The translations under genes were made by a program, and so were the position numbers. The notes under the pieces were generated by a model, which did no database searches, had not been told where the DNA came from, and saw only the letters and a list, made by a program, of their open reading frames with translations. A stretch of 64,000 bases of DNA from Thermodesulfobacteriota bacterium. GTDB taxonomy: Bacteria > Desulfobacterota > Desulfobacteria > Desulfobacterales > C00003060. The first letter of the stretch is position 1. Each line of letters opens with the position of its first letter. Shown piece by piece: positions 1 through 17,200 of this stretch. The DNA is taken from the NCBI GenBank assembly GCA_034189385.1, contig JAXHVD010000001.1, positions 288,001 to 352,000 of the forward strand, given 5' to 3'.

Positions 1-51
1 TTGAAAGACATCTACTATCTTCAGAGTAGGTTGGCTGGAGGGTGTGAATAG

Positions 52-1125
52 ATGAGGGCGCTCAGGGTGATTGATGCTTCCATAGTGACCGGGGCCCTGT
101 TGGGACTGGGAGGTGTTTTCCTGGTCTCTTTTGGAAATCCAGTGAACTCTGGAATCTGCGTCTCCTGTTTTATGGAGAATGTAGCCGGGGCCTTGCAGCT
201 CCACGATGACCTGCGTATGAGTTACATACGTCCTGAACTCATAGGCTTCATATTAGGGTCCTTTCTGGTGGCCACAAAGTCTGGGCGATTTCAGGTGAAA
301 GGAGGTTCCTCTCCTCTCATCCGGTTTTTCATGGGCTTTTTCATCATCGTAGGGTGTGCTGTCTTTATCGGATGTCCCATCAAGATGATTCTTCGCTTAG
401 GGGCTGGTGACCTGACGGCTATTGCCGCTACTCTGGGGCTCACGTTTGGGATCTGGTTGGGTGTCAGGTACATCAAAGGGGGGTTCGCCCTGGACCGAGA
501 AAAGGCGCTTCCCCCTATGAATGGCCTTGTAATTCCACTAGTTGCCCTTCTTCTACTGGTTTTCCTATTCATCAGTCCATCTTTTGTTAAAACAGGACAA
601 AAGGGTCCGGCAGCCTGGCACGCCCCCATATTCATATCACTATTCACAGGGCTCGCCATCGGCGCTTTTGCCCAAAGGTCAGGGCTGTGCATCACTGGAG
701 GGATACGAAATTTCTTCCTGGCTGGAGAGAGAACGTTGCTGAATGGCGTTATTACCGCCTTCCTATCGGCTCTCATGCTGAGTGTCGTTCTGGGGCAATT
801 CCGATGGGGGATGACCGCCCAACCGGCATCCCACCTAAACCATGGATGGACCTTCTTGGCTATGGTCCTCGTGGGCATTGCCTCTGTATTGATTGATGGG
901 TGTCCTTTTAGGCAGTTGATAAAAGCGGGACAGGGCGATGTAGATGCCGGTGTGACAACGCTAGGGATGCTTTTTGGTGGGGGCCTGGTATACTCATGGG
1001 TGCTCAGAAGCACTTCTGCTGGCCCCACGTTCGAAGGAAAGATTGTGGTGCTGATTGGCCTGATTTTTGCTTTGGTGGTAGCTGTGGCATTTCGAAAAAG
1101 AAAACTTGTCGGTCAAGAGAGATAG
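52..1125 (+). CDS. yedE: YedE/YeeE-family sulfur/selenium-compound membrane transporter (selenium-metabolism-linked YedE type)
   Basis: Polytopic hydrophobic ORF with GNPxNSGICVSCF, FIGCP, QRSGLC and DGCPFRQL Cys motifs typical of the family. Confidence 0.85.
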   Translation: MRALRVIDASIVTGALLGLGGVFLVSFGNPVNSGICVSCFMENVAGALQLHDDLRMSYIRPELIGFILGSFLVATKSGRFQVKGGSSPLIRFFMGFFIIVGCAVFIGCPIKMILRLGAGDLTAIAATLGLTFGIWLGVRYIKGGFALDREKALPPMNGLVIPLVALLLLVFLFISPSFVKTGQKGPAAWHAPIFISLFTGLAIGAFAQRSGLCITGGIRNFFLAGERTLLNGVITAFLSALMLSVVLGQFRWGMTAQPASHLNHGWTFLAMVLVGIASVLIDGCPFRQLIKAGQGDVDAGVTTLGMLFGGGLVYSWVLRSTSAGPTFEGKIVVLIGLIFALVVAVAFRKRKLVGQER

Positions 1126-1140
1126 CAAAGGTTATATGGA

Positions 1141-1722
1141 ATGAAATGGTTTGGGAAAGCTAACAAAGAGGAAGTCTCTCTTCAATCTGAAGCCGTGACC
1201 AGGGGCCTCTTGATATTTTCAGATACCAGCACGGTCATGCAGGCTGAGCAGATACTTAAAGAGGAAAGTTACAATATCAAAGTCGTCAGCCCTCCTGAGA
1301 AGTATCGTACCGGCTGCGACCTGTGCGTGGAGTTCCCATTGGTTGAGGAGCCGGGGATTACGAGGATCTTGAAGAAGCTGGGATTGACACCCATAGATGT
1401 GCTCCCCATATCTCCGAATGGACTGGAGCCTTTGAGACTATGCAGAACCAAGGACTTTGGCCAGTATCTCATGGTCAGGGCGGCCAACATGAAGATTACC
1501 ATAGAGAAGAAGACCAATAGGATCGTCAATGTGTCTGGCGGGGGTTGCCCGGATGTGCCTTACTTGGCTTACGAGATGGTAGGCAAAGTCCTCTCCGAGG
1601 CCCCTGAACCGGTACTTATAGGTTTTTCCATGTGCGCCTATTCCCTGAATACGGCTCGAGAAGAAATGATGAAGATTACGGGAGGGAGAGATGCTTCTTC
1701 TGGTTGGGCCGATACCGATTAG
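1141..1722 (+). CDS. DUF3343-domain protein (putative Se/S carrier-like)
   Basis: VMQAEQILK...PPEKYRTGCDL N-terminal motif and SGGGCPDVPY C-terminal motif; follows yedE, as in known yedE loci. Confidence 0.7.
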   Translation: MKWFGKANKEEVSLQSEAVTRGLLIFSDTSTVMQAEQILKEESYNIKVVSPPEKYRTGCDLCVEFPLVEEPGITRILKKLGLTPIDVLPISPNGLEPLRLCRTKDFGQYLMVRAANMKITIEKKTNRIVNVSGGGCPDVPYLAYEMVGKVLSEAPEPVLIGFSMCAYSLNTAREEMMKITGGRDASSGWADTD

Positions 1723-2554
1723 GGACCTACCCCTTTCGCTGGGTCGGATTGAGGTTACCGAAGAGGGGCTTAGGGTGGACAGTCAAGCCCTGGATGTGAA
1801 CCGAGGGACAGCCGCCATGATGTCAGCTGCTTACACCGTCTGTAAGGAGTTTGGCTTGGAAGGCCCCATGGGTTTGGTGGCAGGGGATATAGGCACCAGG
1901 GCTGGCAGTGTAAGAATCTATGAGCATCTGGCAGACAACCTCTCGCTGGAAGATGTGGATGTTCTGACCCTCCACTACATCATGCCTGATATTCCCAGGA
2001 ATAAGGCTTTTTTGGAGACAATGGCGTCCCTGAAAAAAAGGCCTGTTCTGATAGCCGATGCCGGTGCCATGTATGTGGCCAAGGCTGGCGGCGATGCTGA
2101 CAAATATGATGTCTTTACCCCGGATTTGGGGGAGATGGCCTTCCTGGCTGACGAGAGAGCGGCCCATCCCGCCTACACGCGAGGATTCATCTTTCATCTG
2201 GAAGACGATGTGCCTGAGTTGATCCGCCGAGCCCATGCGTCCAAAAACGCTGCTCGCACGTTATTCGTGAAGGGCAAAGTCGACTATATCTGCCAGGACG
2301 GGGAGATCGTTGAAGCCATAACGGAACCGAATATAGAGGAGTTGGAACCCGTCGGGGGAACTGGGGACATGATTACCGGAATGATCAGTGGATTGATCTA
2401 TGCCGGGAAATCACATCTTGAAGCCTGCCGGATAGCAGGAAGAGTGAACAGGAAGGCCGGGGAACTTTGCCGGCCCACCCCTGCCACCCAGGTGGTGGAG
2501 ATCATAAAGTGTATCCCAGAGGCACTGAAACAGGTGCTCAAAGAGCAAGGATAG
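1691..2554 (+). CDS. Ribokinase-superfamily (YjeF-C / NAD(P)HX dehydratase-like) kinase-like protein
   Basis: LIADAG, FTPDLGEM, VKGKVD and GGTGD anion-hole motifs; overlaps the DUF3343 gene. Confidence 0.65.
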   Translation: MLLLVGPIPIRDLPLSLGRIEVTEEGLRVDSQALDVNRGTAAMMSAAYTVCKEFGLEGPMGLVAGDIGTRAGSVRIYEHLADNLSLEDVDVLTLHYIMPDIPRNKAFLETMASLKKRPVLIADAGAMYVAKAGGDADKYDVFTPDLGEMAFLADERAAHPAYTRGFIFHLEDDVPELIRRAHASKNAARTLFVKGKVDYICQDGEIVEAITEPNIEELEPVGGTGDMITGMISGLIYAGKSHLEACRIAGRVNRKAGELCRPTPATQVVEIIKCIPEALKQVLKEQG

Positions 2555-2557
2555 GTC

Positions 2558-2821
2558 ATGCCCAAGTTCATCATCCCTTTTCCACTTCGTGAACATGTGG
2601 ACAATCAGCGCGAAGTCGTGGTCGACGGAAATAGCCTGAAAGAAACCATGGAGCAGTTTTGGCGAAGGTATCCTGCACTGAAAAGGGTGAATCATGATTC
2701 GTCTCTCCTATCTATCTTTGTCAATAGCAGATTGATTAGGACTGGGATCGAAACGTGGGACAGCCTGCCTTTGAATAAGGATGATGAGATCACTCTCATA
2801 ATCCCCATAGCTGGAGGGTAG
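2558..2821 (+). CDS. Ubiquitin-like sulfur carrier (MoaD/ThiS family)
   Basis: 87 aa beta-grasp pattern (IFVN...LNKDDEITLIIPIAGG) ending in a free Gly-Gly. Confidence 0.85.
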   Translation: MPKFIIPFPLREHVDNQREVVVDGNSLKETMEQFWRRYPALKRVNHDSSLLSIFVNSRLIRTGIETWDSLPLNKDDEITLIIPIAGG

Positions 2822-2832
2822 GGGGAGGAGAT

Positions 2833-3408
2833 TTGGTCTCATTAGGGGAAATCAGCCGCACAGTGTTGCCGGTTCAGCATTGGCAGGAGATTCAGGCGCA
2901 TTGCAAGAGGAAACTCGCGGGACAGTATCTGCCTGGTGAGTCCGCAGGCCGAAAGGCCTATGGTTTGCTGGCAGGCACCCAGAATGGTTCGACCCTAAAG
3001 GTGGAGCGAATACTGCCGGCAAGAAGAAATGTCAGAGATCAAGAGCCTTATAAGACGTATATGGACAAGATGATGGAACAGCATGCCATCCCTTCGAAGA
3101 CGCCCTTGAGTAGCAGAGGCTGGATCACGGATCCTGAGGAGCTCAAGCAGTATTACGATAGGTGCGACCAAGAAGGACTTATCGTATTTGGGACTTATCA
3201 TATGCATGTTGTCCCCTGGGAACATGATGCTGTGAGGGATACGCCGACCAAATTGGATGCTATATTGGCCCGAAATAGTAATCTTTTTTCATTCATCGTT
3301 TCCATGGTTGATGTGAGCCATCCCAGCATTAGAGCCTTTTATGAAGCCATGAGGGAGAGAGAGATACCGGTCCTTGTGGAAGACGGACAATCTGTAAGTC
3401 CTCAATAA
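2833..3408 (+). CDS. JAB/MPN (Mov34-like) domain protein
   Basis: AYGLLAG, WITDPEE and GTYHMH...PTKLD (HxH...D) motifs; TTG start after a GGAGG RBS; directly follows the Ubl gene. Confidence 0.65.
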   Translation: MVSLGEISRTVLPVQHWQEIQAHCKRKLAGQYLPGESAGRKAYGLLAGTQNGSTLKVERILPARRNVRDQEPYKTYMDKMMEQHAIPSKTPLSSRGWITDPEELKQYYDRCDQEGLIVFGTYHMHVVPWEHDAVRDTPTKLDAILARNSNLFSFIVSMVDVSHPSIRAFYEAMREREIPVLVEDGQSVSPQ

Positions 3409-3473
3409 CCTCGGGCAAAGCCCCTAAGACCACGTTGGCCAAGAGGCAATTGAACCGAATAAACGAGCGCATT

Positions 3474-3517
3474 CCCCTTGGGTTGACTTCGACGAGCTCA
3501 GTCGAGTGGCCACGGGG
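3474..3517. repeat. Intergenic imperfect hairpin (CCCCTTGG...CCACGGGG) with an internal TCGAC/GTCGA stem; REP- or IS200/605-end-like
   Basis: Nested inverted repeats read directly from the sequence. Confidence 0.35.
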
Positions 3518-3634
3518 AGGGTTCAATTTGAAAACGTCTGAAAATCGCTCAAACAGTCAGCCATTTTCAAATTAGACCACCTAACGCCCTAGTTTTTAAA
3601 AAGTTGCGACAACCTGACGAAAGAAAATGAAATT

Positions 3635-4810
3635 ATGGGAGATATCCTGGACACAGAACCAGAGTTGATGGTGGAGTATACGGATCCCTTGGAGGGATTC
3701 AAAGGGTGGTTGGCCATTGACTGCCTTTCCCACAAGCTTTGCGCTGGAGGGTTCAGAGTCCAAAAGGGACTCACCCGTGACATCGTGGTCAGTTTGGCCC
3801 GGAACATGAATCTGAAGATGCGGATAGCGGGCATTCGGGCAGATGGGGCCAAGAGCGGGATTGACTATGATCCCCATTCACCCGGAAAGACAGCGGCACT
3901 TCACCGCTTCATAAGGGCCATACGACCCCTCATTCTGGAGCGCTATTCCATGGGGCCGGACCTCAATGTGAAGCTGAAAGAACTTGATGATATTGCGAAG
4001 CAATTGGACATTCCTTCGGTAAAGGTTGCCATCGCCAAAGCCCAGGGCTTTGATCTCCCGTACTTTTTGAAACGCTATGGCCTCTTGGGAGAGCCGGTGG
4101 ATCATGCCACAGTCGGAAAACTGCGTTCAGGTTTTGGGCTTGCGGCAGCCTGCTTAGGAGTCCTTGAGTTCCTGGGGATCCCCAATGAAAAGGCAACGGT
4201 GGCCATTCAAGGTTTTGGTGGTTTGGGCAGCGCAGCTGCTTATGGTCTTCAGAGGGCCGGGGTTAAAGTGGTTGGGATAGCCGATGAGGAGAAAAGCCTC
4301 ACCTGTACCAATGAGCACCCACTTGATGTGAAGGCCTTGGTGCAACACGCTGTGAACGGCCTCATTCCAAGTGGATGGAAGAACAGCGGACAGTACGCTG
4401 ATCGAAGTCACATATTTGACGTCACGTGCGACGTGTTCATTCCGGCAGCGATCGAGAATGCTGTTGTTCAAGATAATGCCGGGACCATCTCCACAAAGGC
4501 CATCGTGCCCGGTGCCAATCTTGCCATTACTGAGGAGGCGGAAAGGGTACTGAACGATCGTGGGATTATTACCATACCGGATTTTGTGGCAGGATGCGGT
4601 GGTTCCATGTCGATGAAGGCGCTGTTTGGTCCCAAATCCCATCCCACTGCAGCAGATTTGCTTAACGGCTTGGCTGAAGGCATGCGTGGCATGGTGAAGA
4701 GGGTCTTAGAGCGGAGTCAGAAAGACGGCACCACACCAAGGGAGGCAGCCTTGGATCTGTGCTCCGAAGCCCCGATCTATCCCGATGCCAAACCGTACGG
4801 CCCTCTGTGA
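3635..4810 (+). CDS. Glu/Leu/Phe/Val amino-acid dehydrogenase family protein
   Basis: AGGFR, GAKSGI (catalytic Lys), GPD, IQGFGGLG Rossmann motif, DVFIPAA, PGAN, IPDFVA. Confidence 0.85.
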   Translation: MGDILDTEPELMVEYTDPLEGFKGWLAIDCLSHKLCAGGFRVQKGLTRDIVVSLARNMNLKMRIAGIRADGAKSGIDYDPHSPGKTAALHRFIRAIRPLILERYSMGPDLNVKLKELDDIAKQLDIPSVKVAIAKAQGFDLPYFLKRYGLLGEPVDHATVGKLRSGFGLAAACLGVLEFLGIPNEKATVAIQGFGGLGSAAAYGLQRAGVKVVGIADEEKSLTCTNEHPLDVKALVQHAVNGLIPSGWKNSGQYADRSHIFDVTCDVFIPAAIENAVVQDNAGTISTKAIVPGANLAITEEAERVLNDRGIITIPDFVAGCGGSMSMKALFGPKSHPTAADLLNGLAEGMRGMVKRVLERSQKDGTTPREAALDLCSEAPIYPDAKPYGPL

Positions 4811-4839
4811 GCTGAAAGCTGAAGGCTCAATAGCTGAAA
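4811..4839 (+). repeat. Solo heptamer array (GCTGAAA GCTGAAG GCTCAAT a GCTGAAA)
   Basis: Same 7-mer family and orientation as the array at 9497-9533. Confidence 0.75.
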
Positions 4840-4900
4840 GGGTCCTCAGGATCCAGCAAACCATCCATTCCTCTTCCCAACACCCCAAGGCGCAACAATC

Positions 4901-6277
4901 ATGCCCTCTCATCCCATTGATTTTGAAATAAATCCAAACGTCTATAGCACCCCTGAACTACTAGCCATATTTGACGAAAAGGCAAGGTACCAGCGGTGGC
5001 TCGATTTCGAGGCTGCCCTGGCAAAGGCCCAGGCAGAGATGGGCGTGATCCCTCAAGAAGCGGCTGATGAGATCCAAAGCAAGGCAAGGCTTGCATACTT
5101 AGACTTGGACGCCGTTCACGAGGGGTATCTTCATAGCCGCAATTCTCTCATGCCGTTGATAAACGGTCTTCGCAACGTCTGCGAGAAGGGCTACGGAGAG
5201 TACGTTCATTTCGGTGTGACTACTCAAGACGTTCTGGATACTGGCGAAGTCCTTGAGCTGAGAAAGACCTTGGCCGTCGTTTATCGCGATCTTCGGGCCC
5301 TGGAGATGACTTGCCTGGATCTGGCAAAGAGGCATCGATCAACGCCCATGGTGGCCCGCACCCACGGCCAACAGGCCCTACCTGCCACCTTTGGCCTAAA
5401 GGTTGTCACTTGGTCAAGCGAGATTCGGCGTCACATTGACCGGACTAAAGACCTTTCTCAGAGATTGACGTTCGGGCAATTGAGCGGTGCCGTTGGAACC
5501 ATGGCCGCCTTGGGGCCCCATGCGATGGAAGTTGCCAGACGCACCCTGGACCTCTTGGGCCTCAGGCGTCGTCCCTTGGCGTGGCATAGCTCCAGGGAGC
5601 ACATCGGGGAATTGGCCTGTGCCTTTACCCTCATGGTCACCACGTTCGCGAAGATGGCCAATGAGATATTCCAACTTCAGAAGACGGAAATCGGCGAGTT
5701 GAAAGAACCTGCGCCAAAAGGAGCTATGGCCAGTAGCACGATGCCTCATAAGAGAAACCCTGTTATCTGTCAACGGGTTGTCGTCCTTTCTCGGCATGTG
5801 AGACACCTGGCAGGGACCGTTGTAGAGAGTATGGCGCACGAGCACGAGCGAGATGCCCGCTGCCTGTGGGGGGAGTGGTTGGCTGTGCCCCAGCTATGCA
5901 TCCACACCGGCGCCGCCTTGAAGTACATGCTAGATGTGATGTCAGGCCTCGAGGTGAACGTTGATCGCATGAAGGAAAATCTCCATCTTCAGAAAGCCAT
6001 GATCACATCGGAATGGCTGCTTTTCAAGTTGAGCCACACCATGGGCAAGATGAAGTCTTTAGAGAAGCTCCACGAGCTTTCAAACAAGGCCATGGATGCA
6101 GGGATTCCATTCAAAAGGGCTGTCATGGATGACCATGATACAGGGAATCTCCTTACGAGTGATGAAATAGAATATCTCGACCACCCGGAAAGATACATCG
6201 GGCATGCCCTGGAGATAGTAGACGAGACTGTGGAGGAGATTGAAGGGAAGAGGGCTTCAGATCCAACAAAGCTGTAG
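4901..6277 (+). CDS. Adenylosuccinate lyase / fumarase-aspartase superfamily lyase, paralog 1
   Basis: HFGVTTQD, ARTHGQQA, SSTMPHKRNP signature, HERD. Confidence 0.85.
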   Translation: MPSHPIDFEINPNVYSTPELLAIFDEKARYQRWLDFEAALAKAQAEMGVIPQEAADEIQSKARLAYLDLDAVHEGYLHSRNSLMPLINGLRNVCEKGYGEYVHFGVTTQDVLDTGEVLELRKTLAVVYRDLRALEMTCLDLAKRHRSTPMVARTHGQQALPATFGLKVVTWSSEIRRHIDRTKDLSQRLTFGQLSGAVGTMAALGPHAMEVARRTLDLLGLRRRPLAWHSSREHIGELACAFTLMVTTFAKMANEIFQLQKTEIGELKEPAPKGAMASSTMPHKRNPVICQRVVVLSRHVRHLAGTVVESMAHEHERDARCLWGEWLAVPQLCIHTGAALKYMLDVMSGLEVNVDRMKENLHLQKAMITSEWLLFKLSHTMGKMKSLEKLHELSNKAMDAGIPFKRAVMDDHDTGNLLTSDEIEYLDHPERYIGHALEIVDETVEEIEGKRASDPTKL

Positions 6278-6352
6278 GGTTCACATCGCAGGATTTATGT
6301 GTCTGAGGGGGAGAGACTCTGTCGTGATGGTCAACTCTGCAGTATCGGGTAA

Positions 6353-7035
6353 CGAAATCCTAATGTCGAATATCGAAGCCCGAGACAAATTCGAATGACA
6401 AAAAGAGATAAACCCAAGCAATATGATCTGGAAGATCGAACGCTTGCGTTTGCAAAACGGGTCAGAGCATTGGTAAAAAAGCTGAAAAAGACCATGGGAA
6501 ATATGGAAGACGGAAAGCAGGTGATTCGTGCTTCGGGCTCTGTCGGCGCGAACTACATCGAGGCCAATGAATCTCTCAGCAAGAAGGACTTCATCATGAG
6601 AATCAAGATTAGTCGGAAAGAGGCTAAAGAAAGCCGATACTGGCTGCGACTGTTGGATATTGGTGACGCGCCAGAGCAAGAGAATGAGCGTAAGGTTTTA
6701 GTTAACGAGGCTACGGAACTCATGAATATCTTCGGCGCAATATTGGTCAAGAGCAAAAGTGGTTAGAACATTTGGGCCTCTCAATTTCGGATTTAGAAGG
6801 CGCTGGTCAATGCCTATGAACGTGATGGATTCTCATAATGCCAATCAGTGCCTGAACGAAAAGTCATGTTCAAGGGAAATCCGAATACGGAACTAAGAAA
6901 TTCAAAAAGAATTCGAATGCGAAATGACAGAATGGTCAAGATAATTGATGACTCTTTGGAATTAGATCGTTTTGGTCATTGAGATATTACCATTTTTGTC
7001 ATTGTTTCGTGTTTCGAGATTCGGATCTCGAATTT
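6353..7035. mobile_element. Four-helix-bundle cassette 1 bounded by inverted degenerate CGAAAT-type heptamer arrays
   Basis: Left arm 6353-6403 (cgaaatcctaatgtcgaatatcgaagcccgagacaaattcgaatgacaaaa) is complementary to the right arm at ~6993-7035 (ttttgtcattgtttcgtgtttcgagattcggatctcgaattt); a further left-type arm lies at ~6877-6940. Confidence 0.55.
6395..6766 (+). CDS. Four helix bundle protein (TIGR02436 / 23S rRNA IVP-like)
   Basis: DLEDRT..FA, QVIRASGSVGANYIEA, SKKDF, KEAKESRYWL. Confidence 0.9.
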   Translation: MTKRDKPKQYDLEDRTLAFAKRVRALVKKLKKTMGNMEDGKQVIRASGSVGANYIEANESLSKKDFIMRIKISRKEAKESRYWLRLLDIGDAPEQENERKVLVNEATELMNIFGAILVKSKSG

Positions 7036-7084
7036 TTGAACGCAAGGAGCGGGTTTTCTGTGAAGCATCAATTAGGAAGCGATC

Positions 7085-8527
7085 ATGATTTCGTGCAAGC
7101 CAAACAGCCATATCACCGATTCACGATTCTATAGCAGCGGCTATACCACTGAGGAGGCCCGCAGGGTCTTTTGCGATAAATATCGGTACCAACGCTGGAT
7201 AGAGATAGAAGCCGCTATGGCCTCAGCACAGGCGGATCTTGGAATGATTCCCAAATGGGCAGCCGAGGCCCTCACTGAGAAGGCCCACCTTCGCTATTTG
7301 GACCTGGAGGCCATTAAGGCGGGCATAAAGACAACCAGTCACTCCCTTCTCCCTTTGCTTAGGGCGTGGCAGGAAGTTTGTGACGCCGCTGCTGGAGAAT
7401 TCATTCACTTTGGTGCCACTACCCAGGATATTCAAGACACTGCCCAGGTCCTAGAGATTCGTGACATACTGGGTATTGTTGAGCGCGACCTTACGGCGAT
7501 TGTCCGACAAGTGATGGAACTGGCCGAGCGTTACTCAGGGCTTGTTACCATTGGTCGCACGCACACACAACATGCCTTGTCCATGACACTGGGGCTAAAG
7601 GTGGCTGTGTGGCTAGATGAGCTTTGGCGAAACGTCGAGCGACTGATGGAATGCAAGGAGCGGGTGCTGGTGAGTCAGCTTTTCGGGGGGGTTGGTACGA
7701 TGGATGCCTTTGGTAATAAGGGCCTTGAGCTATTGTCCCTGTTTTCGCAGAGGCTGAAACTAAAGGCGCCCCTCACAGCCTGGCATGTCTCGCGGGACCG
7801 GGGGGCTGAATTCCTTGCCACCATGGCCATGATTTCTGGCACTTGTGCCAAGATAGCCAATGAGATCCGATGCCTGGCGAGGAGTGAAACTGGGGAACTG
7901 GAAGAGCCTTTTCAAATGGGCAAAGTGGGGAGCAGTACCATGCCTCACAAGAGAAATCCTGAAATGTGCGAGCAAGTCATCGTATTGGCAAGGCTCATTA
8001 AGGCCAATGCGGGTTTGGGCTTTGAAGGGATGATTAATGAGCACGAACGGGATTATCGGGCCGTGAGGTTGGAGTGGGTCACCATAACGGACACATCCCT
8101 TTTTGTGTGCGGGCTTTTGTCCTTGATGAAGTCGATCTTGAAGGATCTTATCATCCATGAAAATAGGATTCGTGAGAATGTTGACAAGGCAGCCACGCTC
8201 ATTTCAACAGAGGCCTTGATGTTTTTTCTCGGAGAGACCATAGGGAAGCAGACGGCCCATGAGATTGTCTATGAGACCTCCATGGAGGCTATTGAGACCA
8301 GTCAACCCTTGATCGATCTGTTGATGAACCATAAGGAGATACAGGGAAGATTCAGGCGTGAGGATGTTGAAAGAATCATTGATCCCAAGAACCACGTTGG
8401 CATGTCTGAAAAGCTGACACGCAGAGCGGTTGCATACGTAAGAGAGAAACTACTAGAGAAAGGCCCGTGTGAACAGAGTGAAAGGCTCTGCCCCCTTAGC
8501 GAAAAAGACGGGCGCTGCAGTGTTTGA
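7085..8527 (+). CDS. Adenylosuccinate lyase / fumarase-aspartase superfamily lyase, paralog 2
   Basis: HFGATTQD, GRTHTQHA, GSSTMPHKRNP, HERD; Cys-rich C-terminal tail. Confidence 0.85.
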   Translation: MISCKPNSHITDSRFYSSGYTTEEARRVFCDKYRYQRWIEIEAAMASAQADLGMIPKWAAEALTEKAHLRYLDLEAIKAGIKTTSHSLLPLLRAWQEVCDAAAGEFIHFGATTQDIQDTAQVLEIRDILGIVERDLTAIVRQVMELAERYSGLVTIGRTHTQHALSMTLGLKVAVWLDELWRNVERLMECKERVLVSQLFGGVGTMDAFGNKGLELLSLFSQRLKLKAPLTAWHVSRDRGAEFLATMAMISGTCAKIANEIRCLARSETGELEEPFQMGKVGSSTMPHKRNPEMCEQVIVLARLIKANAGLGFEGMINEHERDYRAVRLEWVTITDTSLFVCGLLSLMKSILKDLIIHENRIRENVDKAATLISTEALMFFLGETIGKQTAHEIVYETSMEAIETSQPLIDLLMNHKEIQGRFRREDVERIIDPKNHVGMSEKLTRRAVAYVREKLLEKGPCEQSERLCPLSEKDGRCSV

Positions 8528-8597
8528 GCAATTTGAGATAGTGTTTTCAGCAAGATAAGCATTAGTCTTTTATGAAGAACTTTTCGCTTTTGATTCT

Positions 8598-8687
8598 CTG
8601 ATTCTGGGTACTGGTTACTTGATGCCAGATAAGCGAAATGATGGGAGAGACTCTTTGAAGTGTCCAGTATCGTGCATCCAGCATCAG
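8598..8687. repeat. Gene-less inverted heptamer-array pair (CTGG-type / CCAG-type)
   Basis: ctgattctgggtactggttacttg (8598-8621) is approximately the reverse complement of ccagtatcgtgcatccagcatcag (8664-8687). Confidence 0.55.
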
Positions 8688-8760
8688 ACTGCGCTGTAGT
8701 GAACTCTCGCAATGCTCACAAAATGGACAACTCACAACACGTTGTCCTGGTATTCTATCT

Positions 8761-9477
8761 TTGAAACGCTATCAAAGACAGATAATCCTTTCTGAATGGG
8801 GTCCGGAAACCCAGAAAAAGCTTAAGGCCGCCAGGGTTTTTGTCGCCGGGGCAGGTGGCCTGGGGTGTCCCGCTGCATTGAATCTTGCCCTCGCAGGTGT
8901 GGGACACATCAGGATCTGCGATTTCGACACTGTTGAGATTAGCAATCTCAACAGACAATTCTTGCATACAGAAAAAAGTGTCGGCACCAGGAAGGCCCGC
9001 TCTGCGCGGGAGACCCTCTTGTCCATCAATTCAGAGATCACCGTTGAGGCCATATCAGAGAAGATCACTGATCGAAACGTGGGTGATGTCGTGGGGGACG
9101 CCCAGGTGATCGTGGATTGCCTAGACAATTTTTCCGCCCGTTATGCCTTGAATAACTGTGCCGTGAGGAAGGGTATCCCCATGGTTCACGGGGCCATATG
9201 GGGGTTGGAAGGGCGTGTCGTCTTTCTCGACCCTCCCAAGACCCCCTGCCTTGCATGCATTTTCCCCAAGGCCCCGGCCAGTGAGCCGTTGCCAGTCATA
9301 GGCGCCGTTTCTTGCGTCACAGGAAGCCTGCAAGCCCTAGAGACCATTAAGTACCTGACTGGGATCGGGAGGCTTTCAGCCGGACGCATGTTGATTATAG
9401 ACGGATCCACCATGGTATTTCAGGAGCTTGAAGTCTTCAGAAACCCCGAATGTCCTGTTTGTGGAGAACAAGAGTGA
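8761..9477 (+). CDS. HesA/MoeB/ThiF family (E1-like) adenylyltransferase
   Basis: RYQRQI, GAGGLG, DFDTVEISNLNRQ, DCLDN, CLAC and CPVC Zn motifs; no rhodanese domain. Confidence 0.9.
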   Translation: MKRYQRQIILSEWGPETQKKLKAARVFVAGAGGLGCPAALNLALAGVGHIRICDFDTVEISNLNRQFLHTEKSVGTRKARSARETLLSINSEITVEAISEKITDRNVGDVVGDAQVIVDCLDNFSARYALNNCAVRKGIPMVHGAIWGLEGRVVFLDPPKTPCLACIFPKAPASEPLPVIGAVSCVTGSLQALETIKYLTGIGRLSAGRMLIIDGSTMVFQELEVFRNPECPVCGEQE

Positions 9478-9496
9478 AAAGAGGTCAAGGTGGGAA

Positions 9497-9982
9497 GCTC
9501 AATGCTTAAAGCTGAAGGCTCAAAGCTTAAAGCGAACAAATACCGCATCAACTGTTTGAAATTGAGTTTATCAACCCTTTGATCATCGACGCTATTTCTA
9601 TTCCACTTAATTCGAGTTTGGAATACGCTTCGTCAGAAATCCATTTCTTTCTTTTGAAGACTTCGAGCAAGGTCATTGTTTCATAGAGAGAGCCTCTCGA
9701 CACATACAAGAACTGAACAAACTCCTTCTTTGAAAAGCGTCCCTTTCCTTCGGCAATATTCATAGACACACTCGTGGAACTAGCTTCAATCTGTTCAAGC
9801 AACCGATAGTGTTTACGGTCTGTAGACAGATCTTCTACAAGATCAATTACCTGAACGGCGAAATCGACCGCCTTGTTCCACACGTCCAGGTTTTGATAGG
9901 CGAATTTCATTGAAATATTGGTCCTCTTTCACCTTCCGACCTTCAGCATTGAGCTTTCAACATTGAGCTCTCCACTTTCAGC
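9497..9982. mobile_element. Four-helix-bundle cassette 2 bounded by inverted GCT(G/C/T)AA(A/G/T) heptamer arrays
   Basis: Five tandem 7-mers at 9497-9531 and six reverse-complement 7-mers at 9941-9982 enclose ORF 9548-9910. Confidence 0.65.
9548..9910 (-). CDS. Four helix bundle protein
   Basis: YQNLDVWNKA, QIEASSTSVSMNIAEGKGR.SKKEF..FL..SRGSL.E. Confidence 0.9.
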   Translation of the reverse strand: MKFAYQNLDVWNKAVDFAVQVIDLVEDLSTDRKHYRLLEQIEASSTSVSMNIAEGKGRFSKKEFVQFLYVSRGSLYETMTLLEVFKRKKWISDEAYSKLELSGIEIASMIKGLINSISNS

Positions 9983-9983
9983 T

Positions 9984-10490
9984 CTATTTTGCCCACTTCG
10001 GGCCTGAAGCATTGTGCACTCTGTCCATGCGGGGTACATAAGGTTTCAGATCCAGCACCGGCGTGCCATGGAAGGCATCGATTGCATCGACCCGGATGAC
10101 ATTATTCCTTACAGAGAGAATCTTGCATACAGAGAGGCCAATGAGGTTGGGCCTCCTGGGGGAGCGGGTGGCAAAGACGCCTGTGAGCGGGTTACTCATG
10201 TTGCCTCTAGGGTGAACACGCAGCGTCTTTCTCTTCTCGGGCGTGTCGTTCTTGTCAAACCAATAGAGAACCACTAAGTGGGAGAACTGATTTAGGCCCA
10301 AAAGGGCATCGGCATATTCTGGGTAGATTTCTATGGTGGTTGTGCCTGCCTCCTTTTTCACCTTTCCCACTGGAAAGACATGAAAGGCGTCCACTGAATC
10401 TTCTTGTTTGCCCTCAGCCGGAGTCAGGGCCAAGCCTGCCGTGACAAGTCCTGCCAAAACAACACATGCCAACACCAAGATCGCTTTCAT
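9984..10490 (-). CDS. tsaA: TsaA/TrmO-like SAM-binding beta-barrel protein with an N-terminal signal peptide
   Basis: GVFATRSPRRPNLIGLS and DAFHGTPVLDLKPY motifs; hydrophobic N-terminus MKAILVLACVVLAGLVTAGLA. Confidence 0.75.
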   Translation of the reverse strand: MKAILVLACVVLAGLVTAGLALTPAEGKQEDSVDAFHVFPVGKVKKEAGTTTIEIYPEYADALLGLNQFSHLVVLYWFDKNDTPEKRKTLRVHPRGNMSNPLTGVFATRSPRRPNLIGLSVCKILSVRNNVIRVDAIDAFHGTPVLDLKPYVPRMDRVHNASGPKWAK

Positions 10491-10907: not shown

Positions 10908-12968
10908 GTGAAGGAAAAATGGGTACCCACTGAATTGTTGCTGTCTTTTCTTGTACTAGTGACCATTCATGGAGGTGCGAGGGCAGCCACTATTTATGTG
11001 CCTGACGATCATGGGACCATTCAGATTGCCATTAATAACGCTGCTGACGGAGACACCATTATTGTCAGAGACGGGACATACACGGAGTATGTCGAGCTTG
11101 GCACTTCGGCTGCCAATACAAAAAACAACCTGATCATCCAAGCTGAAAATGAAGGCTCTGCTATCATTCAATGTACAGACAGCGGCGATGTTCCGGTTAT
11201 ATACATAGAAGGAGATAGCGAGGGAGTACCGACAGGCACCATCATAGATGGTTTTGATATCAAGAGGTCAAGTGGTGGAAAAGGCGCCGGGGTTTTTATC
11301 AGCAACGCAAATACGAGTACCTATGCTGCTGTCACTGTGGAGGATTGCACCATATCCGGGGACACAAGCCTTCACTCGGGGGTTAGATTAAATGGGTATA
11401 TTGAAGCCACTATTACCGGAAACACAATCACCGGACCAAAAGAAGCCGGCATAGCCACCTCTGCCCCTGATTACTCTTCAAATGAAGACTATCTTTATGA
11501 AGATTCGATCGTAACGATTGAGGACAATATCATAAACGGCAATAGTGTCACCGATCAAGCTGGCATATTCCTAAAGGGGCATGCCGACAATACCACCCAG
11601 GTCGTCATCCGAGGCACGAGCACTGGCGTGCCAAAGACCTCCCGTATCTATGGAAATAGAACAGCCGGAATACGATTGGAAGATATTTACGGTGCTGTTA
11701 CGATTGATAATAACCAGGTTAATAACAATTCAAAAGCAGGAATATGCATGATAGATATAGGTTCAGAAAGCGCGATCGCAACCATTCAGAATAACAATAT
11801 TAACGATAATACTCAAGCCGGCATTACGGTAGCCGGTGCGTCTTATTTAACTATTGGGAGTAATAATAACATCAATGACAATGGAACGGGCGGAGTGGCT
11901 TTTAACAAAGCAACCATAACGATTTTATATTCAGACCCCATAAACGCCAGTTCACAACCGGTGACGATTTCAGGAAATAAGATCTACTCTAACAACACGT
12001 ATGCCGGAATCGGGATAATAGATGCCATTACTGGGACCGTAACTATTACCGACCAAAACGATATTTATCAAAATACTCGGGGAGGGATTGGGATCCAAAA
12101 TTCCTGTGAACTTCGCATTATCGGGAACAAGATCCGTGACAATGTGCGCGGAGGAATCCATACCGGCACCGATATAGCAGATGATGCCTTCAGTGATACT
12201 ACAGGGTTTCTTGGCGGTCCTGGCTCCGCTGACCTTACCATTACACAAAACAAGATCTATGGCAATGGTGAAAGCGGCTACGGCGGTGGCATTGATGTAA
12301 GACATGCTTCCGGCACCATTCATAACAACCTGGTGTATAGAAATCACAGAGGGGGGATCAGGTTCGGCGATTATATTACCGAGATTGTCAACAACACAGT
12401 AGCTCATAACGGCAATGACAACGACACCCCCACCGATCCAGATGACGATACTGGGGGCGGTATTGTTTATGACAACCTTGCAGGTGCTGTTAATGCGCAA
12501 CCAGAGGGAACACTTAGCGATTCCGCTAATTACCCCAATCCCCGCATAAGGAATAACATTTCTGCCTATAACATAACAACAGGACTCAGGGTTGGAAAAA
12601 TGCCAACGGATCTTACTACATGTCCCGACAACCCGGTTTATTCTTCTGATAGTATTAATTATAGGGACTATAACCTCGTATATCTCAATAATGGAACAAC
12701 CGATGATTGCGGGTGGTATACAGATACTGGTGTTTCCTATGCACGCATTTTGTCCTGTGCAAATAAGCAGTACGGTGGTTGTGGGGCAAACTGGCCCTAT
12801 CCGTTTGTAATGGTGGACCCACATGATATTATCGCAGATCCCCTGTTTGTAAGTACTACGGAGGGAAGTGAAGACTATCACCTTAAAGCCGGATCGCCAG
12901 CCATAGGTGGCGGAGTTGGTGGGGCCACGATGGGTGCCTATGGGGGTTCCGATCCGATCAATTGGTAG
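10908..12968 (+). CDS. Secreted right-handed parallel beta-helix (pectin-lyase-like/NosD) repeat protein
   Basis: Signal peptide, IYVPDDHGTIQ.AI start, many I..N.I..N...GI repeats, C-terminal DPLFV...DYHL...SPAI...MGAYGG. Confidence 0.85.
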   Translation: MKEKWVPTELLLSFLVLVTIHGGARAATIYVPDDHGTIQIAINNAADGDTIIVRDGTYTEYVELGTSAANTKNNLIIQAENEGSAIIQCTDSGDVPVIYIEGDSEGVPTGTIIDGFDIKRSSGGKGAGVFISNANTSTYAAVTVEDCTISGDTSLHSGVRLNGYIEATITGNTITGPKEAGIATSAPDYSSNEDYLYEDSIVTIEDNIINGNSVTDQAGIFLKGHADNTTQVVIRGTSTGVPKTSRIYGNRTAGIRLEDIYGAVTIDNNQVNNNSKAGICMIDIGSESAIATIQNNNINDNTQAGITVAGASYLTIGSNNNINDNGTGGVAFNKATITILYSDPINASSQPVTISGNKIYSNNTYAGIGIIDAITGTVTITDQNDIYQNTRGGIGIQNSCELRIIGNKIRDNVRGGIHTGTDIADDAFSDTTGFLGGPGSADLTITQNKIYGNGESGYGGGIDVRHASGTIHNNLVYRNHRGGIRFGDYITEIVNNTVAHNGNDNDTPTDPDDDTGGGIVYDNLAGAVNAQPEGTLSDSANYPNPRIRNNISAYNITTGLRVGKMPTDLTTCPDNPVYSSDSINYRDYNLVYLNNGTTDDCGWYTDTGVSYARILSCANKQYGGCGANWPYPFVMVDPHDIIADPLFVSTTEGSEDYHLKAGSPAIGGGVGGATMGAYGGSDPINW

Positions 12969-14233: not shown

Positions 14234-17200
14234 ATGCGAATGGTCTGCCTCTATTTCTTCATGGCATTTTTGATCCTCTGGGCATCAGGCGCCGCGGCCG
14301 AGAATCTTGTGACAAATCCAGGATTTGAGGCAGGCATTGGCTCGCCGTGGGCGAGCAACTCCCAGACATATTACTCTTTAGACAGCGGGGCATTTCATGC
14401 TGGCGCCCAATCTCTTAAAGTAACCGTTTCTGAGACTGCAGGCAATCATATTTGGATGGGTCAGAGTCTCCAGGTGACTCCAGGTGAATCTTACGATGTT
14501 GGCGCGTGGATTAAGACGGAGAGTGTGAGCGGTGCCGGAGCACAGGTATTCGTGGAATGGTCCAGCCCAAGCACATGGTTAGGTGGAGAATATGGTTTCA
14601 AGACAGTGAAAGGCACCCAAGACTGGCAGTATACTGGTCTCTCAGGTCTGATAATGCCGGAAAACGCGACAACCGCCACGGTTTTTGTCTCCATGCTGCA
14701 AGGATCAACGGGGACGGCCTGGTTTGACGATGTCATGGTGGAAAGACAGGCAAAGTCCGTTTTGGAGACGGTCCTGTTACGGCCAAACTACAGGGACAAG
14801 CTTTTACCGGATGCGCGGTCTCCTGAAATAGGAGTAGAAGTTATTCTGACCCCTGAAGAGGAGGATTTGACGCTGGGCGAATTAGAGATCACGGTGGCGC
14901 TCAAGAATGAAAGCGGGGATATTGTTCTCCAAGATGGTCCCATAGTTCCTTCGTCGAAGCGTTTTGAGGTGGACTTGGATATTGCCGCCGATACCCCACC
15001 GGGAGATTACACTCTTGCCATAGATCTCTTCACAGGCAAAACTCTCCTAAAGCAAGACACGTACCTAATAGAGAGATTGTCACAGGAGGCGTTTGACGAT
15101 TTGACCTCCTACATTGATAGCTACGGCCGTTTTATTCTTAATGACGAGCCTTTTTTCCCTCTGGGTTTATATGTGGTTGAATGCACCAATGGCAGTTACG
15201 CTGCCGAGCTAGATGAAATAGCTGACAGCCCTTTCGACACGTTGATGAATTATAGCGTCAACCGATGTGGCTCTGATGCGACGGACGCTCAGATCTGGGG
15301 GTACTTGGATGAACTGGCATTGCCATCGCGAGATTTGAAACTCATCTTTTCCCTTTCAGAGTACTTTGACGGGGCGCCGGCGGGCTGGGCTACTTGGATG
15401 TTTTCTATGCCTACAGACGGCACTTTCGACCTTTATGGCTGGTGGACGGGAGGTTCAAACAGGGCCAGCGATGCGCCCTATATGGTAAGCTATGGCAGCT
15501 TCTCTCAAACCATCAACATCGACCAGAGAATTCAGACCGGGGCCTGGAATTATATAGGCTCTTTCACCTTTGCCGGGTCAACATCGGGCACTGTGGTTTT
15601 AGGCAATGATGCCAATGGCTATGTGATTGCCGATGCCATTGGATGGGATACCGATGGAGATAGCAACCCAGACATCATTGTTGATGATGTGGATGCGGGG
15701 TTTTCCACCCAAGGCAATGGCTGGCTTACAAGTACGTCCGTTAATTCATACCTTAATCATGAGCATTATCATGCCAGGTTTTCCGATGACATTGCTACTA
15801 TAACTCACAAGGTGAACACCTTTAAGGCCCATCCTGCAGTCATAAGCTGGTATCTCAATGACGAACGCGACCCGACGAACTATCTGTCTCAATTGGAAGA
15901 ACGGTATGCTGCGATAACACAGGCGGATGGGAACCATCCCGTTTGGTCCGTGCATTGGAATACCGATTGGTTACTACAAGAGGGGCATACGACAGACATC
16001 GTGGGAATGGACTCGTATCCAATAGAGAACTTACCAATCACCGTTGTCGGAGAAGTGGCGGATACAGCACTCCAGGCTGGCAGACCCCTTTGGTTTGTGC
16101 CCCAGATATTTGATTGGAGGGATTATCCCGGTGACCCGGCGGGGCGCGATCTCACAGGGCGGCCTCCCACAAAAGAAGAAATGCGGGCCATGACCTATCT
16201 GGCCACCAACCATGGTGCCAAGGGACTCATTTACTACTCTTATTTCAACATCCGGGATGATGCCGATTATGGGACCAGGTGGCCACAGATAAAGGAGATT
16301 GCAGCTGAGATTCGTGACCTCAGGGATGTCATCCTTTCCATTCACCAGACGAATGATAACGACATTGCCTGTGACAACAGCAATATTGACTTTAAGTTGA
16401 TGAGAGAAGGCAATAGGTACTATCTCTTCGCGGTCAACACAAAGGAGCAAGCCCTGGCTGATGTGTCATTCGCCATCAACATGGAGCTGGAATCATCAAC
16501 CGTTGACGTGCGTTTCGAAGAAGACCTCGACGGTGATAGACAGGTATCTCTAATAAACGGTACGATAATAGATAGTTTTAGCCCTTACGAGGTGCACGTC
16601 TATTCTTGGCAAGGTGCTGCTGACAAAGACGGAGATGGTTTTGATTCGTTGGAGGAATGGGGGCCTAACAGAGATGATCCCAACTACGATGGTAATGGGG
16701 ACGGCTATGCGGACAGCGAATATGCGAATGTGGCCTCAGGTCATACTTTTGACAAGCAGCACTATGTGACTTTGGCTGTTTCCGAACCGGGCCGTTTAAG
16801 TCATTGTGCGGCCATTGACAACCCGGATCCGGCAAACACCCCATTCAGAAGAGGGTTTCCCCACGGCTTCTTTCGTTTTCAGGTCAGCGAATTTGATTCA
16901 CAGGACGGTTGCAAAGACGTGACCCTGCTGCTGCCCAGAAATACGAACATTGAGGCTTACTACAAATACGGAAGGACACCAGACAGCCCTGATCATGACC
17001 ACTGGTACGAATTCATGTTTGACAGAGAGACGGGTGCTGAGATCTTTCACGAGGAGACCTTGACCCGGATCGTCCTCCATCTGTGTGATGGAAAGCGGGG
17101 AGATGATGCTCTTTCCGTTGTCGGCACGATTGTTGACACAGGAGGCCCTGCCATCATCACCACTGCTGCACCTTCTGTGGTCACGGGCACGGCCGATTCG

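Follow-up and report, generated by a model that had tools for sequence, protein, structure and literature searches.

A stretch of 64,000 nucleotides from a Thermodesulfobacteriota bacterium (GenBank assembly GCA_034189385.1, contig JAXHVD010000001.1, positions 288,001 to 352,000 of the forward strand), here called the window, contains nine co-oriented genes on the + strand between positions 52 and 9,477. Judged from related gene neighborhoods, these nine genes make up the cytoplasmic half of a single conserved operon with approximately 14 genes. We propose that the products of this operon import a chalcogen species and build it into an organic small molecule, a reading to which we assign a probability of roughly 45%; the product would probably be a small molecule that contains selenium or sulfur. 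The genes are listed below with their window coordinates and best domain matches (G000 and C1 are our designations for this genome and this contig).

1..51, + strand: 3' end of the gene for TPRb, a TPR-like protein with a transmembrane anchor (whole gene, G000:C1:287518-288051); its stop codon abuts the start of yedE
52..1125, + strand: YedE-family membrane channel of the selenium-type subfamily (TIGR04112, 389 bits, cut-off 200)
1141..1722, + strand: fusion of a DUF3343 (selenium/sulfur carrier) domain with a conserved C-terminal domain, here called the carrier (PF11823, 56.5 bits)
1691..2554, + strand: NnrD/ribokinase-like ATP-binding protein, labeled a kinase in the initial description and here called CarbK (PF01256, 50.6 bits)
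2558..2821, + strand: ThiS/MoaD-type ubiquitin-like protein (Ubl) ending in PIAGG directly before the stop codon (PF02597, 29 bits)
2833..3408, + strand: divergent JAB/MPN+ (JAMM) metallohydrolase, here called JAB (PF01398, 16.2 bits, cut-off 22.5)
3635..4810, + strand: ELFV-family amino acid dehydrogenase of a nonglutamate type (PF00208, 106.7 bits; PF02812, 37 bits)
4901..6277, + strand: lyase 1, of the adenylosuccinate lyase clade (Lyase_1/ADSL_C) of the aspartase/fumarase superfamily (PF00206, 148.5 bits)
7085..8527, + strand: lyase 2 (Lyase_1/ADSL_C; PF00206, 145.3 bits)
8761..9477, + strand: ThiF/MoeB-type E1 adenylyltransferase of 238 amino acids, consisting of the ThiF domain alone (PF00899, 251.7 bits)

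An earlier, sequence-only reading of this DNA had described nine co-oriented genes, of which the first five are tightly coupled. Pfam and NCBIfam matches agree with the identities that it gave to all nine, its coordinates and strand hold, and intergenic gaps of 15, -32 (an overlap), 3, and 11 nucleotides bear out the coupling, but it overlooked a tenth open reading frame (ORF) within the run. Its 5' limit at position 52 was an artifact of the window edge: one conserved gene has its stop codon at bases up to 51, and the upstream sequence holds five conserved genes in the same orientation. The terms "kinase" and "fumarate-eliminating" describe inferred rather than observed properties.

To compile related loci, we started from the JAB protein, for which 238 relatives were retrieved at an E value of ≤0.001; identity was 57 to 91% among the 120 matches listed, nearly all of which are unnamed. 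A profile of 16 relatives was then searched against a collection of species-representative genomes, which resulted in 35 loci, and neighboring genes were identified by tblastn with the proteins of the window. All 35 loci came from Thermodesulfobacteriota (Desulfobulbaceae, Desulfocapsa, a Seep-SRB2 bin, Thermodesulfatator, and one cultured isolate). The recurrent order was carrier, CarbK, Ubl, JAB, dehydrogenase (where present), lyase 1, lyase 2, and E1. CarbK was found in 35/35 loci, the carrier in 33, Ubl in 32, and yedE in 26. At least one lyase was present in 29 of the 31 assessable loci (the four others are cut by a contig end), the exceptions being L013 and L041, and E1 was present in 23 of 26 assessable loci, being absent from L020, L023, and L024. 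The dehydrogenase was found in 24 of 33 assessable loci; in the other nine, JAB is followed directly by lyase 1, and on this pattern we consider the dehydrogenase to be an accessory member of the operon.

The same order in 35 loci from other genomes is far beyond chance, and the linkage of the dehydrogenase and lyases to yedE, Ubl, and JAB, for which the sequence-only reading had proposed a search in other genomes, recurs there, contrary to the outcome that this reading had named as refuting. Public annotations name the lyases "adenylosuccinate lyase," as would be expected if purB, gdh, moeB, and moaD housekeeping genes had come together fortuitously. Given the order kept in 35 loci, the true PurB and the other E1s encoded elsewhere in the genome, and equivalog scores that lie under their cut-offs, we regard such a fortuitous neighborhood as highly improbable. 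The collection scan undercounts the operon, as lyase 2 orthologues occur in 38 of the 119 genomes of the isolate's family. In an even sample of 401 genomes of the phylum, JAB was present in two, including the present genome.

Several loci depart from the recurrent arrangement. In L041 (CP070769.1), JAB is truncated at residue 123 and is not followed by lyases, and in L013, unrelated genes follow the dehydrogenase; both loci look decayed or rearranged. A variant cluster (L020:577-8510 and L023:1-3432) has upstream genes for an MFS transporter, three NosD-like beta-helix proteins, and a 538-amino-acid membrane protein with an ICMT/PEMT-like methyltransferase domain.

When the flanks of the related loci were clustered all against all, the conserved block was seen to extend upstream of yedE. 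Five genes contiguous with yedE encode an OpuAC-like lipoprotein, a TPR protein with a signal peptide, a PhnD-like lipoprotein, a NosD-like beta-helix protein, and the membrane-anchored TPR-like protein TPRb. Their products are all exported or membrane anchored, and the genes are kept in 22 to 25 of the 35 loci, with a TPRb homologue directly upstream of yedE in 25. In 15 loci, the operon begins with a gene for a DASS-type anion transporter, and in 6, a NicO nickel transporter gene is found among the upstream genes. Downstream, 10 to 11 loci contain genes for a TPR/outer membrane barrel protein, a second NosD-like protein, and a multiheme cytochrome.

In the present genome, the gene for the PhnD-like lipoprotein (G000:C1:285380-286327; L006:15380-16327) contains an in-frame TGA at L006:16103-16105. 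At the aligned position, 23/23 orthologues have an invariant Cys (MPYC-T), a second Cys (MIC) is likewise invariant, and similarity of 68 to 71% continues over a further 73 codons past the TGA. From the alignment, the TGA is a candidate selenocysteine codon (U242) or a nonsense mutation. The fold downstream of the TGA was no better than that of shuffled sequences (z = 0) when inspected for a selenocysteine insertion sequence (SECIS), and no alternative base was seen among the overlapping DNA contigs listed, for which coverage is thin.

The public names of lyase 2 relatives pointed to cable bacteria, where JAB and CarbK were present in 5/5 genomes tested. In "Ca. Electrothrix" sp. GW3-4 (G510; L154, L158, and L159), the genes are distributed over at least three places, namely, carrier-CarbK, JAB-dehydrogenase-lyase 1, and lyase 2 alone, and the three regions examined have no yedE or envelope genes beside these pieces. 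In a related genome (G492, L160), the operon is nearly complete, envelope genes included. Ubl had no match in the four cable-bacterial regions examined. That the set is retained even where synteny is lost points to a shared function and links the dehydrogenase and lyase 1 with the JAMM protein; the linkage claimed in the sequence-only reading persists for JAB, dehydrogenase, and lyase 1 in the scattered set.

The occurrence in cable bacteria brings up another possible function, namely, that the gene set makes a sulfur-rich ligand for a metal-sulfur (in cable bacteria, nickel-sulfur) material of the envelope. Ubl and E1 would then act like MoaD and MoeB, the lyases would place two sulfurs on a small unsaturated acid, and a thiolate or dithiolene-type ligand would be exported to NosD-like, TPR, and cytochrome partners. 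This would fit with the NicO gene inside the operon in 6 loci, with the barrel, NosD-like, and cytochrome genes downstream, with the occurrence in cable bacteria of lyase 2 (38 of 119 genomes of that family), JAB, and CarbK, and with the fact that the passages available from PMC13534509 and PMC11247825 leave unnamed the genes responsible for these bacteria's nickel bis(dithiolene) ligand. In the same way, the passages of the cable-bacteria papers name none of the genes considered here, and we found no published role for the set there. However, the operon is also present in many lineages other than cable bacteria, whereas the nickel cofactor signal is, according to the parts of the literature available, so far confined to them; the YedE-carrier-CarbK triad associates with selenium genes, and the pieces in GW3-4 lie apart from yedE and envelope genes. 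We therefore consider the nickel-sulfur ligand distinctly improbable as the product.

The three proteins at the 5' end of the finding contain invariant residues. YedE exceeds the curated cut-off of TIGR04112 across model positions 3 to 336 of 337 and has six Cys that are invariant in 25 orthologues, including those of the GCPIK and GCPFR motifs. The carrier scores 56.5 bits on PF11823 (DUF3343/Se_S_carrier), for which the cut-off is 25, contains approximately 100 further residues C-terminal to this domain, and has the invariant Cys residues C59, C136, and C165, that of the RTGCD motif (Cys59) being present in 31/31 sequences. Its predicted model (predicted local distance difference test [pLDDT] score, 81.7) has a ferredoxin-like fold in the N-terminal part, with many weak matches, some of them to metal-binding proteins. 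A Foldseek search of this model against the PDB returned nothing at an E value of ≤0.001 (ACT-like regulatory domains were at ~7e-3), and VIA-align gave common ferredoxin-like matches with Z scores up to 8 and, for the C-terminal part, IscU with a Z score of 5.8, which we treat as leads only. CarbK appears to belong to the NnrD/Carb_kinase fold family by its domain match (PF01256, 50.6 bits, cut-off 27), the score for the NnrD equivalog being below the cut-off (TIGR00196, 39.5 bits, cut-off 129.85). The GGTGD stretch, a GxGD anion-hole motif, is invariant in 36/36 sequences, and an ESM Atlas look-up returned the names of its own family only.

A carrier profile searched against 1.84 billion representative sequences retrieved 238 proteins. 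Among the 150 listed, there are five natural carrier-Carb_kinase fusions of 514 to 588 residues (P0124, P0125, P0132, P0136, and P0144), and one fusion cluster includes a "Ca. Mailhella" protein; in the window, the two genes overlap by 32 nucleotides. A metagenome scan with the fusion proteins then yielded 80 loci (L042 to L121) from gut, sediment, and freshwater records. Carrier and CarbK were found together in 75 of these, 55 of which also contain YedE. Ubl, JAB, and dehydrogenase genes were present only in L106, and lyase or E1 genes in none. A TusA/YedF-like gene occurs in 70/80 loci, selD in 10/80 (9/36 when loci measuring at least 8 kb are counted; TIGR00476, 291 bits), and the selenium regulator LysR_Sec_metab in 5/80 (NF040786, 292 bits, cut-off 250). 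Other recurrent neighbors are an NMN-adenylyltransferase-like gene, a CbiR-like TIM barrel gene, and an apgM-like metalloenzyme gene.

A second copy of the module is present in this genome on contig C29 (G000:C29:7972-11831, L122), where the order is YedE-TusA-carrier-CarbK-selD and selD contains one TGA. The C29 proteins share 39% (YedE), 51% (carrier), and 45% (CarbK) identity with their operon counterparts. A CbiR-like TIM barrel gene (15226-15993) was noted near this selenium set.

By gene context, YedE, the carrier, and CarbK are a separate, widespread module linked to selD. The sequence-only reading had treated the three as part of the locus, which holds for their conservation there but leaves out this wider distribution; the co-occurrence with selD that it proposed to check is seen in the metagenome loci and on C29. 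Because CarbK is a member of the selD-linked module and occurs elsewhere as a fusion with the carrier, we place it in chalcogen handling, and phosphorylation of the carbon skeleton, considered as an alternative role, was rejected on the same grounds. The carrier and CarbK look like one functional unit of the selD neighborhood, as yet uncharacterized. These associations are consistent with published work: comparative genomics tied YedE and DUF3343 to SelD (PMC5322559), duf3343 was among the top genes overlapping with selD (bioRxiv 10.1101/2022.04.13.486033), and Methanococcus yedE mRNA increased on selenium starvation (PMC11097638).

The central part of the operon resembles carrier-protein systems. 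Ubl ends in AGG directly before the stop codon, with no extension, in 33/33 sequences (32 orthologues and that of this genome). It matches PF02597 (29 bits, cut-off 22.5) and stays below the cut-offs of MoaD_arch (24 bits versus 49.5) and SAMP1 (16.4 bits versus 60). With a free Gly-Gly terminus in all sequences, the JAMM protein is not needed for Ubl maturation, and product release or deconjugation is the more likely role as judged from these termini. In JAB, E36 and H123 are invariant (36/36), and H125, D136, and D142 are present in 35/36 sequences; the JAB profile weakly matched PDB entry 2kks (E value, 3e-4) and JAMM1 (E value, 0.04). Structure prediction of the JAB-Ubl complex gave a score of 0.83 (0.83, 0.86, and 0.81 in three runs), compared with 0.01 for the best control, a mark that 116 of 157 solved complexes attained, as did 2 of 215 mismatched pairs. 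At least 86% of contacts were common to the runs, and the pLDDT score of the partner was at least 81. In the model, the Ubl tail (residues 83 to 87) touches JAB residues 97 to 99, 121, 123, 139, 141 to 142, and 145 and reaches the HxH region, and JAB is predicted to grip the Ubl tail. E1 has a conserved GxGGLG nucleotide loop and two conserved CxxC motifs, has no rhodanese domain, and scores 240.8 bits on the MoeB family NF004281, for which the cut-off is 266; two other ThiF-family genes are present in the genome, on contigs C63 and C10. The free Gly-Gly end and the predicted interface are in line with the Ubl/JAB/E1 triad recognized in the sequence-only reading.

An alternative for this triad is that Ubl is an amino group carrier or protein modifier unrelated to sulfur or selenium, to which a substrate is tethered by E1, modified there by the dehydrogenase and lyases, and released by JAMM, the yedE triad being only cotranscribed. 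ADL-type lyases cleave N-acyl-aspartates such as SAICAR, and there is no sulfur donor enzyme in the cluster, both of which would suit such a function. This alternative has to contend with the gaps of 3 to 15 nucleotides that join the yedE triad to the Ubl gene in nearly all loci and with the pervasive conservation of Cys; we consider it improbable.

The two lyases are related to each other (35 to 39% identity). Lyase 1 scores 310.8 bits on purB (TIGR00928, cut-off 326.2) and 446 bits on XcbD (NF052536, cut-off 600), and lyase 2 scores 325.1 bits on purB, 560 bits on NF006500 (cut-off 626), and 465 bits on XcbD. The best family matches are thus NF006500, an uncharacterized ADL subfamily, and XcbD, and the nearest solved chains are 3c8t, trans-aconitate decarboxylase, and carboxymuconate cycloisomerase (CMLE). 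A true PurB (560 bits) is encoded on contig C8. In an alignment with it, the catalytic His is retained in both lyases, as are the SS.MPHK.NP loop and HERD, and the KHD, TSSD, and SHSSVER stretches, which we take to hold the nucleotide in PurB, are altered. The SS(T)MPHK.NP loop and the His of lyase 1 are kept in at least 27/29 sequences, with an additional invariant C290 beside the loop. Each lyase has an invariant Cys four residues past the catalytic loop. In lyase 2, C295 and C469 are invariant in 27/27 sequences and C478 is present in 23/27, and its conserved C-terminal tail, R.CP....G.C (window 8470-8527), is missing from lyase 1 and the C8 PurB. Duplicates of housekeeping PurB or ArgH were rejected as an identity for the two lyases, given equivalog scores under the cut-offs and the PurB on C8. 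Their scores and motifs mark them as ADL/XcbD-like proteins and not as PurB.

The closest precedent for two such lyases in a sulfur pathway is XcbC/XcbD. XcbC eliminates phosphate to give the enoate used by XcbD, an ADL-like superfamily enzyme that adds the cysteine thiol to sulfoacrylate (PMC9457059).

The dehydrogenase is far below the cut-offs of all glutamate, leucine, and tryptophan dehydrogenase models (98.7 bits versus 620 and 79.6 bits versus 750 for the glutamate dehydrogenase [GDH] equivalogs). It keeps the catalytic-type Lys of GAK(S)G and has C-A-G-G in 25/25 sequences where GDH structures have Y-K-G-G. The Lys of K-G-G in GDH binds the side chain carboxylate of the substrate, and on the basis of this motif, the use of glutamate is unlikely.

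Starting from the observed gene content, conservation, motifs, and fusions and from the Ubl-JAMM interface as predicted, we infer the chemical steps, the element, and the product of the pathway as follows. The exported proteins (two lipoprotein binding proteins, two TPR proteins, and the NosD-like beta-helix protein) would capture the chalcogen at the envelope and pass it to YedE. In the cytoplasm, the three invariant Cys of the carrier would bind it, with carrier and CarbK acting as a unit. E1 would adenylate the free Gly-Gly end of Ubl, on which the carrier-bound chalcogen would form a seleno- or thiocarboxylate. By beta-elimination, one ADL/XcbD-like lyase would generate a fumarate-type enoate, to which the other would catalyze a conjugate addition that forms a C-Se or C-S bond. 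JAMM would free the product and regenerate Ubl, and the accessory dehydrogenase would interconvert the 2-oxo and 2-amino forms of the carbon skeleton. Invariant Cys are widespread in the proteins concerned, i.e., in the carrier, in YedE, beside the catalytic loop of both lyases, and in the tail of lyase 2. With respect to the element, selenium is favored by the associations of the module and by the candidate selenocysteine codon in the PhnD-like gene, and we give it slightly better than even odds; sulfur is favored by all known Ubl/E1 chemistry and is a serious, if less probable, candidate. More tentatively, and as a minority possibility, a relay dedicated to selenium would lead to a Ubl selenocarboxylate from which the two XcbD-like lyases form C-Se bonds on a C4 acid, which would represent a third kind of selenium small-molecule pathway.

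A number of observations weigh against the proposal that the operon fixes a chalcogen into a small molecule. (i) Gene content is not uniform: L013 and L041 have sequence downstream of JAB but no lyases, the dehydrogenase is missing from nine loci, and L020, L023, and L024 keep JAB and both lyases without adjacent Ubl and E1. The lyases may thus not need this Ubl, which also had no match in the cable-bacterial regions. (ii) JAB has Pro or Ala in place of the canonical Ser of HxHx7SxxD, and its PF01398 score is below the cut-off; the high score of the JAB-Ubl pair may reflect the existence of solved JAMM-Ubl complexes and shows likeness, not binding. (iii) Both lyases are under every curated cut-off, so that substrates are not assigned by score, and the nearest solved relatives act on tricarboxylates, not on sulfur or selenium adducts. 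(iv) A sulfur or selenium donor enzyme is absent from the cluster. No desulfurase or rhodanese was found among the operon or flank genes, and a TusA-like query gave no tblastn match in any of the 35 loci; the upstream sequence, to which the sequence-only reading had pointed for a desulfurase or TusA, yielded neither. (v) In 4/5 other cluster-bearing genomes, the operon YedE and CarbK are the sole copies, and selD is located elsewhere; the YedE/carrier/CarbK module may then simply feed SelD or may also serve SelD.

The last of these observations bears on the first of two alternatives, in which the operon serves salvage or catabolism: an organic or complexed sulfur or selenium compound is imported, the lyases and the dehydrogenase dismantle it by beta-elimination of a succinyl-type adduct, and the chalcogen is passed to the carrier or Ubl and on to SelD or assimilation. 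The lyases of this superfamily mostly run eliminations, and the DASS-type transporter at the head of 15 loci could be read in the same sense. Yet the known examples of a Ubl that ends in Gly-Gly and has its own E1 and JAMM are biosynthetic or transfer devices, and no binding protein-dependent permease for an organic substrate is present, so that salvage seems unlikely to us. In the second alternative, the operon is concerned purely with trafficking; a seleno- or thiocarboxylate on Ubl would be only a safe store in the cell or a donor (to SelD, tRNA, or a cofactor), JAMM would release the chalcogen or remove stray conjugates, and the lyases and dehydrogenase would serve an adjacent metabolic need. 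JAMM/SAMP-type systems both transfer sulfur and conjugate proteins, and the yedE triad is linked to selD elsewhere. The adjacency of JAB, dehydrogenase, and lyase 1 even where the remaining genes are scattered and the co-occurrence of lyases with JAB in 29/31 assessable loci speak against an independent role for these enzymes, and we consider pure trafficking rather unlikely as well.

Comparison with described systems separates what is known from what is new. (i) As in the CysO/MoeZ/Mec+/CysM (cysteine) and HcyS/HcyF/HcyD (methionine) pathways of protein-thiocarboxylate biosynthesis, a Gly-Gly-ended ThiS/MoaD-type carrier, a ThiF-type E1, and a JAMM protein are encoded with user enzymes. In contrast to them, the operon has no pyridoxal phosphate-dependent sulfhydrylase (CysM/MetY) in the cluster or flanks, its E1 has no rhodanese domain, and its Ubl needs no trimming; the partners are two ADL-like lyases and an ELFV dehydrogenase, with the YedE/DUF3343/NnrD-like and envelope modules attached. 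(ii) With XcbC/XcbD (PMC9457059), it shares two aspartase/fumarase-superfamily enzymes proposed to work in tandem, one eliminating to an enoate and one adding to it, but the XcbD cut-off is not reached, matches to XcbC are 45 and 31 bits, and there is no ComA/XcbB, XcbE, or XcbA beside the operon. The nucleophile would be a protein- or carrier-borne chalcogen, whereas XcbD uses free cysteine. (iii) A selenium-type YedE and a DUF3343 protein with conserved Cys are shared with the selD-linked YedE/YedF(TusA)/DUF3343 neighborhood (PMC5322559; bioRxiv 10.1101/2022.04.13.486033). The operon copy differs in having neither TusA/YedF nor selD and forms a distinct, more conserved subgroup, CarbK identity being 59 to 74% among operon copies and 32 to 50% to selD-type copies. 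The C-terminal domain of the carrier and the NnrD-like partner are not discussed in the passages available from these two sources. (iv) The YTD cluster of sulfur disproportionators (a yedE-related gene, tusA, dsrE, and chp; PMC12998232 and PMC9751629) shares a YedE-family channel, occurrence in Desulfobacterota, and Cys-based carriers. The operon YedE is, however, of the selenium type of TIGR04112, TusA had no tblastn match in the 35 loci (no search was made for DsrE), and Ubl, JAMM, lyases, and E1 are foreign to YTD as described in the parts of these papers available. (v) MoaD/MoeB and the archaeal SAMP/UbaA/JAMM1 system share the E1 and Ubl families, with E1 scoring 221 to 257 bits on MoeB/UbaA and JAMM1 being a weak JAB match; every equivalog score is under its cut-off, and no MoaE is present. 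The Ubl/E1/JAMM transfer logic and thiol-adding lyases of this superfamily are thus known; what is new is their assembly, together with the selenium-type module attached to it and the envelope half. Full-text literature searches, which did not extend to supplementary tables, retrieved no paper describing the combination, as the sequence-only reading had supposed.

Two further features of the finding are a repeat array and a cassette, the latter not part of the system.

4810..4840, strand not applicable: heptamer tandem array (AGCTGAA, 4.3 copies) 3' of the dehydrogenase gene
6374..7023, + strand: inserted IVP/four-helix-bundle cassette (PF05635) with 31-nucleotide inverted repeats

The cassette contains the tenth ORF (6395-6766, + strand; PF05635, 51.6 bits), which lies between lyase 1 and lyase 2 and is bracketed by the inverted repeats 6374-6404 and 6993-7023; a terminator-like hairpin (7013-7032) lies within or at the cassette. 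By tblastn, none of the 35 related loci gave a match to the IVP ORF, and the lyase pair is therefore split in this genome only. The sequence-only reading had seen only heptamers and short repeats as interruptions; the AGCTGAA array is there, but this gene cassette interrupts the run as well. A second IVP/four-helix-bundle gene (9548-9910, - strand) lies between 47-nucleotide inverted repeats of heptamer-like units (9477-9988). Both IVP genes look like small inserted cassettes from their sequence context, and the solo heptamer array may be a remnant of an IVP-type cassette. Downstream of E1 follow a TrmO-like gene (9984-10490, - strand), a gene for a 686-amino-acid beta-helix/NosD-like protein (10908-12968, + strand), and a gene for a 1,100-amino-acid protein with CBM_4_9 and Golvesin_C domains (14234-17536, + strand), after which polysaccharide genes are found. 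An Rfam scan of the operon and 18 kb upstream detected no riboswitch or other family at E values up to 0.1. A promoter and terminator scan of positions 1 to 9477 found no promoter-like site on the + strand and totals not above those of shuffled sequences, a result that says nothing about transcription.

Pathways that specifically place selenium into small molecules had stayed elusive, according to a preprint on selenoneine, and the abstract of a later preprint on ovoselenol calls the ovoselenol pathway the first. Likewise, no dedicated selenium transporter or route of intracellular delivery is established according to the part of PMC11097638 available. The operon provides a concrete and testable gene set for both selenium's introduction into small molecules and its transport and delivery, and at least one carrier of the operon, the isolate behind L035, is in culture. 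If the reading with a Ubl selenocarboxylate is true, it would concern a carrier chemistry and a class of Se-C bond-forming enzymes for which we found no precedent in print. Even if the element is sulfur, the carrier and CarbK still stand as a unit of the selD neighborhood, and the operon would put aspartase/fumarase-type lyases to a new use, in combination with a protein thiocarboxylate.

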